Source of the DNA: Ferroglobus placidus DSM 10642
GTDB lineage: Archaea > Halobacteriota > Archaeoglobi > Archaeoglobales > Archaeoglobaceae
Reading direction: 5' to 3'
Assembly: GCF_000025505.1 (NCBI RefSeq)
Contig: NC_013849.1
Span: forward strand, 30,001 to 62,000
DNA length: 32,000 bases
The translations under genes and the position numbers were made by a program. This document shows, one piece after another, positions 1,880-21,842 of the stretch. Every line of letters begins with the position of its first letter. The stretch's first letter is position 1. The notes below the pieces were generated by a model. The model ran no database searches. It had not been told where the DNA came from and worked only from the letters and a program-made list of their open reading frames with translations.

Positions 1880-2882
1880 GGAGAAGCAATCTGCAACCCA
1901 TGTGAATTTCGAACTGATATCGGTAATGAAAGATAACTCCACTTACAAAGCGGTTGTATTTATCAAATCAATTGAGCGTAATAAATCCATTCCTGTTTCA
2001 GCTTTCCTCGTAAAAACAAAAAACAAGATGTTCTCTTTGGATTCAGAAAATGTCTGGGTTCCTGGTTCAGGGAGAATGAGCAGCATTGAAACGGGGAAAA
2101 TTTTCGTCGTTAATTTAAGCGAAAACGACGGATATTTCTGGATATACCCGGCTCACCACAATTCAAGAGTACTGGGTTATCTCCTGGTAGCTTTAACCAA
2201 CTTATCGGAAAAAGAGATTAAAGAGATTCCAATCCCACTGAAACCTCCTGTATTTCCCAGACATTCAGTGGCTTATAAGAACGGAAAGCTTTTCCTGCTT
2301 GACAATACGATTTTTGGAAAAGCTGGGGATGTGATTGATGAGTTTAAAGAAGTAGAAATTAATGAGACCCGCAATCTAAGTTTGAAAAAAGGGTATTCTC
2401 TTAAAAGGATAGTTCTTGGAGTTAGAGGTGCTGACGTGCATGAAATTGTGGTTGCTGTTCACAACAACAGCGGTTTCTGGGTGGAGCCCGGAAATTACGA
2501 GCAGGGAGCTTTTCTCTTCGCTCCGATTGATAGCTCTGAAAAAGCAATAGAGTATCTTAATTTCCTTATGTTCAAAACTCGATATTCCGTAGCAGGCAGA
2601 ACTGCATTCTGGATTAAGAGTGAGGAGGAGTTAAAAAATATTGTCGCTGAAATGGAAAGACATGCATCAGAATTAGGAAGAAAGCTGTTAGTACTAGAGC
2701 ATCCTCCTGTGAATTTTACAGAAGTAAAAGAGTTAAATCAAGCATTTTTGGTCAGAGAGATATACTATACTAAATACCCGGAAAGTATTCGGTATCTGGA
2801 AGCTTTAATTAATGAAAATGGGGAAGTGAAGATTGTGGCAGATCGTATTTGCATTAAAGGAGTTAATTATTCTATGACATAA
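1818..2882 (+). CDS. Putative lipoprotein of unknown function
   Basis: MGKLKFFLAAVILLALCGC is a signal peptide followed by a lipobox-like LALCGC. Long uninterrupted ORF with no family motif I recognise. ATG at 1818 is preferred over GTG at 1809. Overlaps the upstream gene by about 62 nt. Confidence 0.5.
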   Translation: MGKLKFFLAAVILLALCGCIEEKQSATHVNFELISVMKDNSTYKAVVFIKSIERNKSIPVSAFLVKTKNKMFSLDSENVWVPGSGRMSSIETGKIFVVNLSENDGYFWIYPAHHNSRVLGYLLVALTNLSEKEIKEIPIPLKPPVFPRHSVAYKNGKLFLLDNTIFGKAGDVIDEFKEVEINETRNLSLKKGYSLKRIVLGVRGADVHEIVVAVHNNSGFWVEPGNYEQGAFLFAPIDSSEKAIEYLNFLMFKTRYSVAGRTAFWIKSEEELKNIVAEMERHASELGRKLLVLEHPPVNFTEVKELNQAFLVREIYYTKYPESIRYLEALINENGEVKIVADRICIKGVNYSMT

Positions 2883-3056
2883 CTCTAAAAACTAAAAAGA
2901 GCGAATTGTTTCAAAAAGTGAAACGAACTCCAGTACAACCGATTTAAGGGTATTATCGAAGAGTGAAAGAAAATCCTCGTTCGTAGAATCTAATCTTTAG
3001 TTCTTTAGTTGGTATTCCATACAGAAAATTTTATAGGAGACTAAGTTAAATTATTA

Positions 3057-4454
3057 ATGATGGTAGATATCGCTTTGATAAATCCTCGTGGCAGATTCGA
3101 GCTGGCTGAAGAGCTGAATTTCATCTCTCCACCGCTTGGATTGGCGTATCTTGCAGCAGTTCTCAGAATGGAAGGATACAAAGTAAAAATAGTGGATGCG
3201 ATGGCTGAAAGGCTTGAGATAGGAGAAGTTTTGAAGAAAATTAAAGACTGCTTCCTCGTAGGAATTACCGCGACAACTCCTCTTTTCAAAAGATCTTTAG
3301 AGTACGTGAGGGAAATAAAGAAAGCGTTTCCGGAAAAATTCGTTATTCTCGGAGGGGTTCACGTAACTTACAGACCTGCTGAGGGATTAAGAGAAGCTGA
3401 TGCTGTTTGCATAGGCGAGGGAGAGAAAACCATCGTTGAAGTTGCTGAAAGGGTTGAGAGTGGAAGAAGCTTGGAAGGTGTGAGAGGAATTTGGTGGAGA
3501 AAAGATAAAAAGATCGTTAGGAATTTGCCGAGGGAGCCTATTTTTGATCTCGATGCTCTTCCTTTTCCAGCTTTCGATCTTCTTCCCCTTAACAAGTACA
3601 GCTTTATGGAAAGACGGCTTGAAGAGTTTCCGATGATCACCTCTCGCGGCTGCCCCTTTTCATGCCTTTACTGCGTCTCCTCTAAATTTTTTGGTAGGAG
3701 GTACAGAAGTAGAAGTGCGGAAAACGTTGTGGAGGAAATGAAATGGCTGGAAGATGAATTTAACGCTAAACACATCGCTTTCAGCGACGACACCTTCACT
3801 TTAAGCAAAAAAAGGGTTGAGAGCATTTGTGAAAAAATAAAAGAAGAGGGTGTGGATTTAACCTGGAGCTGCGCCTCAAGAGCGGACACAATTGACAGAG
3901 AGCTCGTGAGGATTATGAAGAGGGCGGGATGCACCAGGATGTACTTCGGAGTTGAATCAGCGAGCGAGAGAATTCTAAACTTCTACAGAAAAAAGCTCGA
4001 TATAAAAGCGGTGGAAAGGGCAATAAGGATTTGCAAGGAGGAGGGAATAGAGACGGTGTGCTCATTCATAATAGGCGCTCCAGATGAAAGCGAGGAAGAA
4101 ATGAAGAGAACTTTGAAACTCGCGATGAAACTCGACCCTGACTACGCTCAATTTTCGATCCTCACTCCCTACCCAGGCACCGAGCTTTACGAGATCGCCG
4201 AGAAAGAAAATCTACTAATTACGAAGAATTACGAGGACTACACCGCCGGAAAACCCGTTATGAGAAACGCTCATTTAAGTCCTGAGAGGATTAAAGAGTT
4301 TCTAAACTACTGCTACATGAAGTTTTACGCTCGTCCGAAATATCTCTTCAAAATGGTCTCATCTAAGAACTTCAAACTCGTTTACAGCATAATAAAACGG
4401 CTACTTTTACCGAAAAACGTGTTCAGCCAGTCTATTGCCGAAAAATTAGGTTGA
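3057..4454 (+). CDS. B12-binding-domain radical SAM protein (class B radical SAM)
   Basis: N-terminal Rossmann-like cobalamin-binding region (PPLGLAYLAAVLRMEGYKVKIVD). Canonical CxxxCxxC cluster motif CPFSCLYC encoded at 3651-3674. Typical ITSRGCP context. Confidence 0.85.
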   Translation: MMVDIALINPRGRFELAEELNFISPPLGLAYLAAVLRMEGYKVKIVDAMAERLEIGEVLKKIKDCFLVGITATTPLFKRSLEYVREIKKAFPEKFVILGGVHVTYRPAEGLREADAVCIGEGEKTIVEVAERVESGRSLEGVRGIWWRKDKKIVRNLPREPIFDLDALPFPAFDLLPLNKYSFMERRLEEFPMITSRGCPFSCLYCVSSKFFGRRYRSRSAENVVEEMKWLEDEFNAKHIAFSDDTFTLSKKRVESICEKIKEEGVDLTWSCASRADTIDRELVRIMKRAGCTRMYFGVESASERILNFYRKKLDIKAVERAIRICKEEGIETVCSFIIGAPDESEEEMKRTLKLAMKLDPDYAQFSILTPYPGTELYEIAEKENLLITKNYEDYTAGKPVMRNAHLSPERIKEFLNYCYMKFYARPKYLFKMVSSKNFKLVYSIIKRLLLPKNVFSQSIAEKLG

Positions 4455-5594
4455 TTATCTAATCCTAACTGCAAACATGTCGGCTACGAAAGCGAGTATT
4501 GCGAAAGTAAATAGCACTCCTCCGGCTATAGAAGTTTGGGGAATAACTAAAAGTATTACCCCGAGAGGTGATACGTAAAGAGCGAACTTTCCGATTTTTA
4601 TGTTAAATAAATCAGCTATCATCGGCACATCTTCAACTCCAAGCTTGTCGGCATACTTCTCCATCCACGTAATCATCGGGATGATATGATATTCTGCCCC
4701 AACGATCGTCAGAGCTATCCAGCCGGCTAAAAGAAGGTGAGAGTGCTGGAAAGTTAGATCGAAGAATAAGTTCAGCGGAGCCAAAGTGATTCCAGCGAGT
4801 CCGAAAATTAACGCTACAACGAAAAACTTCACGCTTATATCAAGCTCAGCTTCGCTCTCCGGCTTAGAAGCGAGAGTAAGTAAGAGATTTAAAGCTAACA
4901 GGTAAAAGCTGAGGACGAACAAGGATCCGAAGAACAAAAGTGCCTTTTCTGAATACGTGAAACTGTAAATCATCCCGATGAGAGCAACATTTGAGATCAC
5001 GAACGTTACCCAAGCAAGTTTCTGACTTTTGAGCTTTCTTAAAGAGAGCATCGGAAACAACTCGTAAAGTCCTCCGAAAGTAGTTAGCCCTATCCACCCT
5101 GCAGCTAAGATGTGAGCGTGAACGCGGATGTTGAAAGTGAAAACTCCCAAGAATGCTAAAAGCGCATACGTTATTCCTGCTAAGTAGTAAATTATGGCTA
5201 CAGCAAAAAACCACACCGCTACGCTTGGAGAGAGTCTAGCGGAGGAGATCGTCAAAAAGATCACTATCGCGAACAATATCGCTCCAATTGTGTATATAGC
5301 TGCGGAAATCGAGAGATCTACAATACCGCGCATGGAAAGGGCTAAAAGCACCGTACCAAGATTTAGGAGGTAAAAGCTACCTTCAGCAAGGGCTTTCCCT
5401 CTCAATTCCGTCCCGAGTATCGTCGGAACTATTTGATACATCGCTCCTACGATTGTCAAGCTTACGAAGCCTGCAAGCATTAAATGAGAATGAACGGGTT
5501 TGAAGTAAAATCCAAAAAGGTTGAGAATTCCCAAAAAAGCCGCTACTACCAAGTAAACCAGAGCGGAGTATAGAAATTTTAAGGCTAAATTCAT
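4455..5594 (-). CDS. 12-TM integral membrane protein with three internal repeats, each carrying an HxH...G...Y..(I/V/F)P motif; family unknown (heme-copper-oxidase-like?)
   Basis: Motifs are HSHLMLAGFVSLTIVGAMYQIVP (aa 35-57), HAHILAAGWIGLTTFGGLYELFP (aa 159-181) and HSHLLLAGWIALTIVGAEYHIIP (aa 284-306), spaced 124-125 aa apart. GGAGGT sits 5 nt upstream of the ATG at 5594. It is the last gene of a coupled operon. Confidence 0.7.
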   Translation of the reverse strand: MNLALKFLYSALVYLVVAAFLGILNLFGFYFKPVHSHLMLAGFVSLTIVGAMYQIVPTILGTELRGKALAEGSFYLLNLGTVLLALSMRGIVDLSISAAIYTIGAILFAIVIFLTISSARLSPSVAVWFFAVAIIYYLAGITYALLAFLGVFTFNIRVHAHILAAGWIGLTTFGGLYELFPMLSLRKLKSQKLAWVTFVISNVALIGMIYSFTYSEKALLFFGSLFVLSFYLLALNLLLTLASKPESEAELDISVKFFVVALIFGLAGITLAPLNLFFDLTFQHSHLLLAGWIALTIVGAEYHIIPMITWMEKYADKLGVEDVPMIADLFNIKIGKFALYVSPLGVILLVIPQTSIAGGVLFTFAILAFVADMFAVRIR

Positions 5595-5595
5595 T

Positions 5596-5772
5596 TCAGA
5601 CCTCCTCTATCTCTCTGATAAGATCTTCAACCTTTAGTCCTCTAAATTCTGCCGCATCTTTAATCTTCACGTTACCTCCACAACAATCACAAATCCCGTA
5701 TTTAAAAAGGACCCTTTTAGCAGCGGGTTTTCTCCTTAAAACTTCTGCAACCGTCATATCCGGAGAGATCAT
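5596..5772 (-). CDS. DUF1858-type small protein (hybrid-cluster-protein-associated redox disulfide domain family)
   Basis: ISPDMTVAEVLRRKPAAKRVLFKYGI-CDCCGG...AAEFRGLKVEDLIREIE matches my recollection of the DUF1858/ScdA_N-like pattern. ATG at 5772 is preceded by GGTGAT with 4-nt spacing, so it is preferred over the GTG at 5781. Confidence 0.6.
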   Translation of the reverse strand: MISPDMTVAEVLRRKPAAKRVLFKYGICDCCGGNVKIKDAAEFRGLKVEDLIREIEEV

Positions 5773-5773
5773 A

Positions 5774-6274
5774 TTAATCACCTTCCACCTTTATGTACCT
5801 CGTAACGTCGACAATTCCTCCCTTTCTCCTCTTCTTTTCAGCGAGTATCTTCATAACTTCCTCGTACTTATCTCCCAAGCACTTTTCAGCGTAGCTGCAC
5901 CACTCTACGCAGCTGTCTATTTCGAATATTACTTCCTTTCCACAGTTCTCGCAAACACCTTTTATTTCGTCCGTCCACCTTTCAATGTCAGCTCCGCAGT
6001 AGGGACATTTCACGATCTCGAGGGAAGGTCTGAAGATCGTCGATACCCCCGGACAGCTTCCCGGAATGATCTCCGGCTCTCTTATTTCAAGTTTTACGTA
6101 TCCGTCTTCCTCTTTATACTTTACGATATATCCTTCATCGTGAAGTTTCTTTATCAAAGCTTCGGGTTTCGTTTCTATGATAACGTCCAAGTTACCTACC
6201 TCGCGAACTTTCTCAAGAATTAAACTGAACCTCTTGTCTCTGTCCATTCCCCTTACATCCAAAACCTCTACCAT
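5774..6274 (-). CDS. DUF2249-like N-terminal domain fused to a Cys-rich zinc-ribbon-like C-terminal domain
   Basis: N-terminus (VLDVRGMDRDKRFSLILEKV...LDVIIETKPEALIKKL) is paralogous to the upstream DUF2249 gene. C-terminus has CPYCG...CENCG plus CVEWCSYAEKC. ATG at 6274 is preceded by AAGGAGGG and is preferred over the ATG at 6304. Confidence 0.55.
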   Translation of the reverse strand: MVEVLDVRGMDRDKRFSLILEKVREVGNLDVIIETKPEALIKKLHDEGYIVKYKEEDGYVKLEIREPEIIPGSCPGVSTIFRPSLEIVKCPYCGADIERWTDEIKGVCENCGKEVIFEIDSCVEWCSYAEKCLGDKYEEVMKILAEKKRRKGGIVDVTRYIKVEGD

Positions 6275-6276
6275 GC

Positions 6277-6483
6277 TTAAGCCCTCCTTATTCGAACAAT
6301 CCACTTCTCACCATCAAACTTCGACTCGCAAACGTAACCTTTCTCCTTCAGCATAGCCATCAACGGCTTAGGCTCAACCTCGACTATCAATTCCAGCTCC
6401 CCATGCTCTTGCAGTTTCTTCATAACGAGGGGCGGTCTTTCTGGATGGGGCAAACCTCTAACGTCGAGCCTCTCCATAACCAT
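6277..6483 (-). CDS. DUF2249-family small protein
   Basis: LDVRGLPHPERPPLVMKKLQEHGELELIVEVEPKPLMAMLKEKGY fits the DUF2249 pattern (LDVR.L.p.eR.p.i...l..GE...l....P.PL). Its ATG overlaps the DUF59 stop (TGATG). Confidence 0.6.
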   Translation of the reverse strand: MVMERLDVRGLPHPERPPLVMKKLQEHGELELIVEVEPKPLMAMLKEKGYVCESKFDGEKWIVRIRRA

Positions 6484-6755
6484 CACTTCGTGAGTAACTC
6501 GTTAAGCTCTTCCTCCTTCACGTATCCGGTAACTTTTACCTTCGCTTTAACTCCCAAATCTTCCACACTTCGCTTTATAGCAAAAGCGAGCTGCTGACCT
6601 ATTGGACAGAAAGGCGAGGAAGGTCGGAACGTGATGTGAACTTCGTTATCCTTAACTTCAAGTTCCTCGATCAGTCCCATATCCCAAACATTCTGTCTCG
6701 TGTGGGGGTCTATAACCTTCTTCAATCTCTCAACTACTTCCTCTTTACTTACCAT
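6483..6755 (-). CDS. DUF59 / MIP18-family Fe-S assembly-related protein
   Basis: VVERLKKVIDPHTRQNVWDMGLI...ITFRPSSPFCPIGQQLA is the typical DUF59 signature (V.DPe....i.dlGlv, conserved Cys-Pro). GGTGGT lies upstream of the ATG. Confidence 0.7.
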   Translation of the reverse strand: MVSKEEVVERLKKVIDPHTRQNVWDMGLIEELEVKDNEVHITFRPSSPFCPIGQQLAFAIKRSVEDLGVKAKVKVTGYVKEEELNELLTK

Positions 6756-6783
6756 GTCCTACCACCAAAGAATCTTTGTTCTC

Positions 6784-6795
6784 AAAATATAATAG
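6784..6795 (-). promoter_or_regulatory. Candidate TATA box for the 6755->4455 operon
   Basis: The minus strand reads CTATTATATTTT about 30-40 nt upstream of the ATG at 6755, and it is the only A/T-box-like element in the 61-bp gap. Confidence 0.3.
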
Positions 6796-6816
6796 CCTAC
6801 TCCCGAAAAACTTAGG

Positions 6817-20714: not shown

Positions 20715-21842
20715 TTATCTAAACAAAACCGGAAGCATTACGGAACCCATGCATGCTATGGGGCGAACTTTTAGAGCGTATGAAATCAAACCCACCGCTG
20801 AAGCTGAGAAATAGATCGCAAGTCCAAAAACTCCGTTGAAGTGGAGAGATAAAACAATTAGGAAAATTAAAACAAAGAGGGAAACTTTTCCAACTTTTAC
20901 CTTCGAAAAGACCTTCGAAGAGGGATAGATCAGGAGTAGAGTTATTGCCGTTGCAATTATAGCAGCTACAAGAACGAAAAGGGGTAGTAAGAACAGCGCT
21001 TCTCTCGCTCCTTTTAGAGCTTCGGCTATTCCGCTTCTAACTTTTTCTGAGTGCAGCATGGCTAAGCTTAGAATAGCTGCGGAGGTGTTTGCCGAGCTTA
21101 TCGAGGATACGTAGCTCTCGGAAGATTTCGAATTAGCTGAAGCTATGCCTGTGGCAACACCGGAGCTTATCCCGGGGAATAGCGAGACGATAAAGCCTGC
21201 AAAAACTCCTTTTACAACGTCAACCGGATTTGGAAGGCAGAACATCACCTTCTGCTCGACGATCTTTTCACTTCCCAAACTCTGCAGAAGCATCGGCGTT
21301 GCGAAGAGTCCAGTTAGGAGGGGAAAGTAGAAATCTCCAGCCTCTAAAGCTTTAAAGCCGAGAATTCCCGAGACAAAGAAGACCGCGAGAAAGTAAAGTC
21401 TTCTTTTTAACGTCGACAGCGAGCCTCCGAATGTGTCCTTTTCGTACCTGAGAAAAAATATAAGAGCGAAAATTATGGCGAATTTGTAGAAGAACGAGAG
21501 ATCGAAGCTGCTTATCGCGGCGACAACGTAAAAGAGCGGTAGTGAGAGAATTGCTGAAAAAAGTGAGGAGAAAGCTGAAATGGATATAGCTTTCCCTCCT
21601 TCACCTCTGTTAACGAGCTCGTGGGCTGGGAAGATAGTCAAAGCGGTGTCTTCTTCCGGAACTCCCACAAACGTTGCCGGAATTATGTTGAGGAATGTGT
21701 GAGTTACGAGCATCGAAACTAAAATCACAGCCTCTTCGCTGTTTGCCGAGGAGTAAAGAGAAGCTATCGTATTCGGATGAATACCGGGAATTAATCCCGT
21801 TAAACAGCCGAGAAAAATTCCTATCAAGCTTTCGAGAATCAT
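20715..21842 (-). CDS. DUF112 / TctA-like integral membrane protein
   Basis: N-terminal LGCLTGLIPGIHPNT resembles the TctA-family G..PG motif. About 10-12 hydrophobic helices. Family call is by recollection only. Confidence 0.45.
   Translation of the reverse strand: MILESLIGIFLGCLTGLIPGIHPNTIASLYSSANSEEAVILVSMLVTHTFLNIIPATFVGVPEEDTALTIFPAHELVNRGEGGKAISISAFSSLFSAILSLPLFYVVAAISSFDLSFFYKFAIIFALIFFLRYEKDTFGGSLSTLKRRLYFLAVFFVSGILGFKALEAGDFYFPLLTGLFATPMLLQSLGSEKIVEQKVMFCLPNPVDVVKGVFAGFIVSLFPGISSGVATGIASANSKSSESYVSSISSANTSAAILSLAMLHSEKVRSGIAEALKGAREALFLLPLFVLVAAIIATAITLLLIYPSSKVFSKVKVGKVSLFVLIFLIVLSLHFNGVFGLAIYFSASAVGLISYALKVRPIACMGSVMLPVLFR

Follow-up and report, generated by a model that had tools for sequence, protein, structure and literature searches.

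The stretch of DNA analysed here, referred to as the window in the following, comprises 32,000 nucleotides (nt) of Ferroglobus placidus DSM 10642 (contig NC_013849.1, positions 30,001 to 62,000 of the forward strand). Its gene Ferp_0043 is the subject of this work; it starts with ATG, encodes a protein of 379 amino acids (aa) that is 100% identical to the translated open reading frame (ORF) of the window, and is publicly annotated as 'hypothetical protein'. Ferp_0043 is the last of five minus-strand genes which extend from position 6755 to 4455 with overlapping or abutting boundaries, in the order DUF59, DUF2249, DUF2249/zinc-ribbon, ScdA_N and Ferp_0043, the latter being assigned below to the haem-copper oxidase homology (HCOH) proteins. 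We consider it likely that Ferp_0043 belongs to the haem-copper oxidase (HCO) superfamily as a non-catalytic protein with three two-histidine sites, most likely for bis-His haem b, and with a role related to nitric oxide (NO) or to metal centers that is linked to its operon.

A regular expression for a 23-residue motif with two histidines in the arrangement His-x-His (HxH) has exactly three matches in Ferp_0043, with periods of 124 and 125 aa (Table 1). The occurrence, coordinates and period given for this motif in a preliminary description of the ORF at 4455-5594(−) are thereby reproduced exactly. Smith-Waterman alignments between the thirds of the protein reach scores of 119, 137 and 138 compared to means of 34-38 for shuffled sequences (z = 12.5, 18.0 and 17.0), and 0 out of 1000 shuffles attained the observed scores. 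The helix that precedes the motif, already noted as a similar hydrophobic helix, is included in this similarity (z = 9.7 between the second and third unit, z = 4.9 between the first and third), and the last two helices of each unit have no significant similarity at the level of single sequences (z between −0.1 and 2.1 for this down-segment). If family profiles of the units are compared by hhalign, the alignments extend across 111-119 columns and hence all four transmembrane (TM) helices, with E-values of 5.3e-31 for evolutionary units (EU) 1 and 2 (119 columns), 2.2e-25 for EU1 and EU3, and 4.7e-24 for EU2 and EU3. The proposed triplication of a four-helix unit is borne out by these numbers and by the 12 TM helices of the AlphaFold model. 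A repeat at the DNA level with a period of 372-375 nt, which would reflect a recent duplication or gene conversion, was not found in the gene, and the triplication is therefore regarded as ancient and not recent.

The relationship to oxidases is visible in sequence as well as in predicted structure. The Pfam model COX1 (PF00115) matches Ferp_0043 in three stretches with 60.7 bits (E = 1.5e-16) at a gathering cut-off of 34.8, and the best stretch (aa 30-88) falls on profile positions 341-398, that is the helix X region. Among solved structures the cbb3 oxidase subunit CcoN is matched with E = 2.5e-3 by Ferp_0043 alone (phmmer) and with E = 1.3e-15 by the family profile (hmmsearch), and the motif aligns to helix X of CcoN without gaps, H284 and H286 corresponding to H345 and H347. 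A profile of the single unit matches cbb3 helices IX-XI (1e-15), helices I-III of NorB (9e-6) and residues 384-446 of the ba3 oxidase (1e-5), and it has no match to A-type oxidases at E ≤ 1. The resemblance of the motif to oxidase helix X, as suggested before, thus holds for C-type and B-type oxidases, for NorB and for Pfam COX1; it could not be confirmed for the A-type sequence which had been quoted in the preliminary description.

The AlphaFold2 model of Ferp_0043, calculated with 46 homologues as input, has a pLDDT of 96.9, a pTM of 0.94 and 12 TM helices. When this predicted model was compared to the PDB with Foldseek, subunit I chains of HCO or nitric oxide reductases (NOR) made up the best matches and every one of the 47 matches with E ≤ 0.001, and the top matches were cbb3 CcoN with TM-scores of 0.72-0.81. 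The model thereby supports the assignment of Ferp_0043 to the HCO superfamily with a subunit I fold. The earlier view of a minimal relative of this fold is in agreement with the COX1 score and the CcoN match, and the structure comparison with oxidase families which had been suggested points in the same direction. In the model the central helices TM2, TM6 and TM10 each carry one HxH pair near the outer membrane face. If the units are compared one by one to those of CcoN, all three units of Ferp_0043 prefer unit 3 of CcoN and no colinear preference is seen. This preference is compatible with a relic or with an independent triplication, and a 'primitive' status is thus not established by the sequence comparison.

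A catalytic HCO or NOR requires six histidines, one each in helix II and helix VI and two each in helix VII and helix X. TM7 of Ferp_0043 (aa 191-214) contains no histidine, which means that a CuB or FeB site cannot form. The positions of the low-spin haem ligands are kept (H35 corresponds to H60 in helix II of CcoN, H286 to H347), as is that of the high-spin haem ligand (H284, corresponding to H345) and, by unit equivalence, the CuB position of helix VI (H161); the histidine pair of helix VII is absent. The score for the ccoN equivalog model TIGR00780 is 36.1 bits at a cut-off of 583.15. Neither the operon nor its flanks within the window contain genes for electron-entry partners (CoxB, CcoO/CcoP, NorC, subunit II, or a quinol-binding extension). 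F. placidus is an anaerobe and encodes a separate NorBC (Ferp_1340-1341) elsewhere in its genome. A genuine cbb3 oxidase is ruled out for Ferp_0043 by the lack of histidine in TM7 and the equivalog score far under the cut-off, and the NO reductase of F. placidus is ruled out by the NorBC encoded elsewhere. NCBI/PGAP labels the homologues P0014, P0033, P0039, P0047, P0049 and P0052-P0055 as 'cbb3-type cytochrome c oxidase subunit I'. As their CuB ligands are missing and their scores are far under the ccoN cut-off, this naming is a systematic over-annotation in anaerobic archaea.

The three HxH pairs account for six of the seven histidines of Ferp_0043, and H303 is the remaining one. In oxidase structures the low-spin haem is held by H60 and H347 of CcoN and the high-spin haem by H345, with H207 as ligand of CuB on the distal side of the high-spin haem. 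According to alignments of hidden Markov models (HMM) the first histidine of the motif takes the position of CcoN H60 and H345, and the second one that of H207 and H347. H35 aligns with H60, and the position of H37 aligns with H207, the CuB ligand of helix VI, in a shifted register. Each cofactor pore of an oxidase hence takes the second histidine of one unit and the first histidine of the next. The placement of six histidines inside the membrane, as proposed earlier, stands; the notion that they face a single common cavity does not, because residues i and i+2 lie on opposite sides of a helix, so that the six histidines cannot share one cavity and three separate sites between the units would result instead. 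A threefold rotation of the oxidase ligand arrangement leads to exactly the pairs H35+H286, H37+H159 and H161+H284. From the alignments, H35 (TM2) and H286 (TM10) would be the equivalent of the low-spin haem site and H161 (TM6) and H284 (TM10) that of the haem a3/b3-CuB site, and H37 (TM2) and H159 (TM6) would lie in pore A, which is free of cofactor in oxidases.

If these pairs represent sites, their members should be lost together, which tests them independently of the alignments. In a set of 82 close homologues, 55 have both H161 and H284, 24 have neither, and 3 are mixed. H37 and H159 are both absent in 2 sequences (Chloroflexota) and mixed in 1, and H35 and H286 are both absent in 4 bacterial sequences. 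With the six positions written in order, most patterns among 212 full-length members are combinations of complete pairs, namely HHHHHH in 64,.HH... (H37 and H159 only) in 51, HHH..H in 11 and H..HHH in 2. H37+H159 is the universally conserved pair, H159 being nearly invariant in the family. On a neighbour-joining (NJ) tree the three predicted pairs change together on 4, 3 and 2 branches compared to 0-1 for each of the other 12 pairs, small counts on a rough tree. We regard the pairing predicted from the alignments as well supported, if not proven.

Next to the three pairs, H303 is a fourth nearly invariant histidine (aa 302-303, window 4686-4691), located in a Y-H-I-x-P context near the cytoplasmic end of TM10. 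It aligns with H364 of CcoN ('YHLVP'), and its counterparts in units 1 and 2 are Q54 and E178. Those examined members without H35 and H286 have Lys or Arg in its place. The loop that follows TM10 in EU3 is conserved as well, with W310, Y314, G319, P324 and L329 each conserved to at least 90%. From the distribution of Lys and Arg (positive-inside) this loop is predicted to be cytoplasmic, and it is a possible docking surface.

The family to which Ferp_0043 belongs is large. A word-indexed search with the single-unit profile returned 10 proteins, and it was the exhaustive search of representatives with this profile that revealed the wider family: 4145 representative proteins, 1205 of them at E ≤ 1e-10. 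The top 150 of the exhaustive search are nearly all 12-TM proteins with three matched stretches. Relatives with a single four-helix unit and HxH were also found (P0087 with 142 aa, P0088 with 153 aa, P0090 with 127 aa), as was a DUF2871-like family. P0132 (862 aa) has six matched units and may represent two 12-TM proteins fused in tandem. P0130, P0182, P0197, P0214, P0216 and P0217 (279-319 aa) have two matched units and may be 8-TM forms or gene fragments.

Table 1. Features of Ferp_0043 and of the genes upstream of it, in window positions.
Feature	Positions	Strand	Details
Ferp_0043 gene, 12-TM HCO-homology protein	4455..5594	−	Stop codon 4455-4457 included; ORF, Pfam COX1, AlphaFold2, Foldseek
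Evolutionary unit 1 (EU1), aa 1-124, TM1-4	5223..5594	−	Helices 3-26, 32-60, 67-88, 94-117
Evolutionary unit 2 (EU2), aa 125-249, TM5-8	4848..5222	−	Helices 125-148, 156-184, 191-214, 216-242
Evolutionary unit 3 (EU3), aa 250-379, TM9-12	4458..4847	−	Helices 253-274, 281-317, 332-350, 352-378
Motif 1, HSHLMLAGFVSLTIVGAMYQIVP (H35, H37), aa 35-57, outer end of TM2	5424..5492	−	Regular expression match
Motif 2, HAHILAAGWIGLTTFGGLYELFP (H159, H161), aa 159-181, outer end of TM6	5052..5120	−	Regular expression match
Motif 3, HSHLLLAGWIALTIVGAEYHIIP (H284, H286, plus H303), aa 284-306, in TM10	4677..4745	−	Regular expression match
EU3-specific conserved TM10-TM11 loop, aa 307-331, WMEKYxxKLGxExVPMIxDLF	4602..4676	−	16-residue insertion compared to EU1/EU2
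ScdA_N/DUF1858 protein, 61 aa, CDCC motif	5596..5781	−	Pfam ScdA_N 44 bits, above cut-off; directly upstream of Ferp_0043
Protein with DUF2249-like N-terminal and Cys-rich zinc-ribbon-like C-terminal half, 176 aa	5774..6304	−	DUF2249 E = 4e-4, below cut-off; several zinc-ribbon models
DUF2249 protein, 69 aa	6277..6486	−	Pfam DUF2249 36.7 bits, cut-off 29.5
DUF59/FeS_assembly_P protein, 90 aa, first gene of the operon	6483..6755	−	Pfam FeS_assembly_P 54.9 bits
61-nt intergenic spacer with TATA-like A/T box TATTATATTTT at 6794-6784	6756..6816	−	Box approximately 30-40 nt upstream of the ATG

The four genes upstream of Ferp_0043 encode small proteins (Table 1), and read from its sequence the spacer in front of them is a possible operon promoter. 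Beyond this spacer follows a branched-chain-type ABC transporter operon. The 61-aa ScdA_N protein has similarity to TIGR03980 and to the N-terminal domain of RIC proteins. In the 176-aa protein the Cys-rich half has the pattern CPG...CPYC...CENC...C..WC...C; if read from its listed GTG start, the gene shares 28 nt with the one upstream, and translation may in fact begin at an internal Met 10 codons further on.

A module of DUF59 and DUF2249 with an HCO-like gene, with or without ScdA_N/DUF1858 and with or without Mrp/ParA, recurs in archaeal and bacterial loci (L001-L009), the carriers being Hydrothermarchaeales-type contigs, Geoglobus, Chloroflexota and other bacteria. A DUF59/FeS_assembly_P gene adjoins the homologue in every locus examined, DUF2249 genes lie beside it in L003-L006, L008 and L009, and a ScdA_N/DUF1858 gene precedes it in L001, L002 and L009. 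In Halapricum the module is located between narJ and a qNOR gene and has a Cu-ATPase and an AhbD-like radical SAM/SPASM gene as further neighbors. Only one bacterial cluster (L005) includes a small cytochrome c, a CcoO/SoxX-like monohaem protein, L003 has a Cu-ATPase with an HMA chaperone, and L009 has a Zip transporter gene. Fused 12-TM and unfused single-unit HCO-like genes are found within one cluster of L009 (positions 1947-5462 of a bacterial metagenome contig). This cluster reads Mrp/ParA-DUF59, a 135-aa single-unit protein, DUF1858, ScdA_N, DUF2249, a 437-aa 12-TM protein, DUF59 and a 153-aa single-unit protein with HxH (P0088), and is followed by DUF116 and the Zip transporter.

On the other side of Ferp_0043 a gene on the forward strand (3057-4454) encodes a 465-aa B12-binding radical SAM protein, HpnJ/BchE-like with 260 bits and below both equivalog cut-offs. 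It converges on Ferp_0043, its last base (4454) abutting the stop codon at 4455. The homologues in Halapricum and Geoglobus are also flanked by radical SAM genes, which belong to another class (AhbD/NirJ-like). This neighborhood could be a coincidence or a link to tetrapyrroles. Upstream of the radical SAM gene, the ORFs 1124-1879 (+; 251 aa) and 1809-2882 (+; 357 aa) have no Pfam match at E ≤ 1e-5. Scans of the window for tRNA, Rfam families and tandem repeats revealed no related feature; the sole tandem repeat of the window, at 21541-21580, is imperfect (21-nt unit, 1.9 copies, 85% matches).

Regarding a potential mechanism, we propose that two central helices contribute one histidine each to every one of the three pores between the units, so that TM2, TM6 and TM10 would each take part in two pores. 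The most likely occupants are up to three bis-His b-type haems, by which Ferp_0043 would be a small membrane cytochrome and not a canonical O2 or NO reductase. Bis-His haem b calls for the fewest assumptions, since in all relatives of known structure the corresponding residues are ligands of haem iron. The protein probably acts in partnership with the small cytoplasmic proteins of its operon in the handling of NO or nitrosative stress or in the maintenance of metal centers during nitrate-dependent growth. The genes dnrN (ScdA/YtfE) and nnrS belong to the core of NO-responsive regulons (PMC1274295), and in Haloferax denitrification leads to induction of DUF2249 genes (PMC11218638). In view of these NO-responsive ScdA/DnrN and NnrS proteins and denitrification-induced DUF2249 genes, a role of Ferp_0043 in NO or nitrosative stress, or in metal-center maintenance, is plausible.

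Several observations do not fit this proposal easily and have to be weighed against it. The histidine patterns.HHH.. (48 out of 212 members) and.HH..H (18 out of 212) break pairs; in 48 members H284 is a Tyr and H161 is kept, and haloarchaeal members lack H35 and possess H286. Such lineages imply that the sites are not always strict two-histidine units, and the co-change counts in favor of the pairing are, as mentioned, small. Three six-coordinate haems at equal membrane depth would provide neither an open catalytic site nor an electron path across the membrane. The predicted partners are cytoplasmic, and the histidines are located towards the outer side of the membrane. The module also occurs in Geoglobus, which reduces Fe(III), and the link to denitrification is thus not universal. 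Finally, a literature query by locus tag yielded no expression or genetic data on Ferp_0043.

An alternative to the haem proposal, to our judgment an unlikely one, is that the three two-histidine sites bind Fe, Cu or Zn and that Ferp_0043 is a membrane component for metal binding or delivery which serves Fe-S assembly and repair. The operon neighbors DUF59/FeS_assembly_P and ScdA_N, the latter known as N-terminal domain of di-iron RIC proteins, would be in line with such a task, as would the Mrp/ParA-type Fe-S carriers found in relatives, the Zip transporter of L009 and the Cu-ATPase with HMA chaperone of L003. Links of HCO-family proteins to iron homeostasis are mentioned in PMC11218638, with reference to the study by Pei et al. 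(2014) that is taken up below. However, in every solved HCO or NOR the homologous histidines are ligands of haem iron, except for that of helix VI, which binds CuB. Two histidines on separate helices make a poor stand-alone metal site and a standard bis-His haem site, and the outer half of the helices offers no further conserved Cys, Asp, Glu or His, the conserved residues there being Gly, Thr and Leu.

That Ferp_0043 could be a divergent catalytic subunit, either of the cbb3 type or as a novel NO or nitrite reductase with a five-coordinate haem at H284 and H161 on its distal side, appears less probable still. Two out of the three CuB ligands are missing with the histidines of TM7, the context of a cross-link Tyr is lacking, and the low ccoN score, the lack of CcoO, CcoP or NorC genes nearby in Ferroglobus and the presence of NorBC in F. 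placidus point away from such a function. H161/H284 does correspond to the position of the binuclear center, but no other pair is lost as often in the family, contrary to the expectation for a catalytic center. Remaining arguments in favor of catalysis are the PGAP naming of homologues, the fact that CcoN structures are the nearest ones, the location of some homologues in denitrification islands or beside cytochrome c, and the lack of a recognizable NO-forming nitrite reductase in F. placidus despite the activity (PMC3236036). The idea of a compositional or convergent artefact of hydrophobic helices, with HxH motifs unrelated to oxidase helix X, has next to no probability: it can draw on the dissimilar last two helices of single units, and it is already refuted by the composition-preserving shuffles, the unit profiles, the COX1 score above the cut-off and the fold match.

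Returning to the proposal of bis-His haem sites, one may extend it to the origin of the oxidases. Pore A is not known to hold a cofactor in any true oxidase and accommodates the D proton pathway instead. We tentatively suggest that the six-histidine subfamily might be a fully symmetric tri-haem cytochrome with one bis-His haem b per pore, pore A included. As the pore A pair H37+H159 is conserved throughout the wider family (more than 1000 clusters), this arrangement may approximate the ancestral state before the oxidases, from which oxidases and NORs would have arisen by loss of the haem in pore A and conversion of one site to a haem-CuB or haem-FeB center. One should keep in mind that we hold this scenario to be rather doubtful as a whole.

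The catalytic subunit of HCO and NOR has a threefold structural symmetry with almost no repeat left at the sequence level, and its origin is a long-standing question. In Ferp_0043 and its relatives the repeat is still visible and each of the three pores has a potential pair of ligands, in the case of Ferp_0043 within 379 residues and in a cultivable hyperthermophile. Its chief interest lies in its use as a tractable model of how the oxidase fold arose. Natural variants with six, four or two histidines provide a way to ask which pores can hold a cofactor; examples are Geoglobus P0030, which lacks H161 and H284, Chloroflexota P0057, which lacks H37 and H159, and P0113 with the pattern.HH... The assignment would further correct the recurring mis-annotation as cbb3 subunit I in strict anaerobes, and it would offer a handle on the widespread and uncharacterized DUF59-DUF2249-ScdA_N module that accompanies denitrification genes.

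How does Ferp_0043 compare to systems that are already known? HCOH families were reportedly described by Pei, Li, Kinch and Grishin in 2014; single 4-TM evolutionary units are reported there to be closest to TM9-12 and possibly to trimerize. The 12-TM three-unit proteins, NnrS among them, reportedly possess two histidines in most cases and possibly one haem, and their gene context is said to point to denitrification and NO detoxification. The idea of an HCO-like protein of three units is thus not new and has its precedent in that study (Protein Sci 23:1220, PMID 24931479), which is cited in PMC11218638 for a connection between DUF2249 and the HCO superfamily and in PMC4602095 for the likeness of a 4-TM homotrimer to the oxidase core. 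Ferp_0043 shows the features by which three-unit HCOH proteins are reportedly defined, namely homology to HCO, three 4-TM units in one chain and an incomplete set of catalytic histidines. It shares with them the 12 TM helices, the HCO/NOR homology, the lack of the full six-histidine catalytic set and a context of DUF2249 and denitrification or NO detoxification. The single-unit relatives with HxH, the DUF2871-like family, the closeness of all three units to CcoN unit 3 and the two-histidine majority pattern seen here agree with that description. Ferp_0043 differs in that they reportedly have mostly two histidines and possibly one haem, whereas the subgroup of Ferp_0043 (64 out of 212) has six histidines, one HxH per unit and three potential sites. 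Ferp_0043 is therefore of a kind that is already known, conceptually anticipated and experimentally uncharacterized. Aspects that may extend what has been published are the six-histidine subgroup with three sites, the loss of sites as modules, and the finding that the one site retained throughout the family is located in the pore left empty in oxidases.

NnrS (PF05940) is a 12-TM membrane protein with haem and copper that belongs to NO-responsive regulons. NnrS and Ferp_0043 are both 12-TM proteins related to HCO, without oxidase function and linked by context or regulation to NO stress alongside ScdA/DnrN-type proteins, but their histidine patterns and partner genes differ. Membership in the NnrS family, which had been brought up in the preliminary description, was not found: Ferp_0043 has no match to the PF05940 model at E ≤ 1, by which membership is ruled out, and only a distant haloarchaeal relative of Ferp_0043 matches it, weakly (E = 3.7e-4, 20.4 bits, below the 28-bit cut-off).

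CcoN of cbb3 oxidases (PDB 3mk7, 8smr, 9g6b) is the best match in both sequence and structure. Both proteins have 12 TM helices and pseudo-threefold symmetry, and the alignment of the HxH at the start of TM10 is free of gaps and extends to the downstream G, Y-H and P. Ferp_0043 is approximately 95 residues shorter than CcoN, is without the histidine pair of TM7, the CuB site and the partners CcoO and CcoP, and has the additional histidines H37 (TM2) and H159 (TM6) that are absent in CcoN. The single-unit 4-TM HCOH proteins, including DUF2871 (PF11070), have the same unit with the same HxH-L-x-L-x-G-W motif, and they share gene clusters with the 12-TM form, as seen in L009. They are separate polypeptides, whereas Ferp_0043 is the fused three-unit version with a loop insertion specific to EU3. 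A homotrimer of such single units would reproduce the arrangement which Ferp_0043 has in a single chain.

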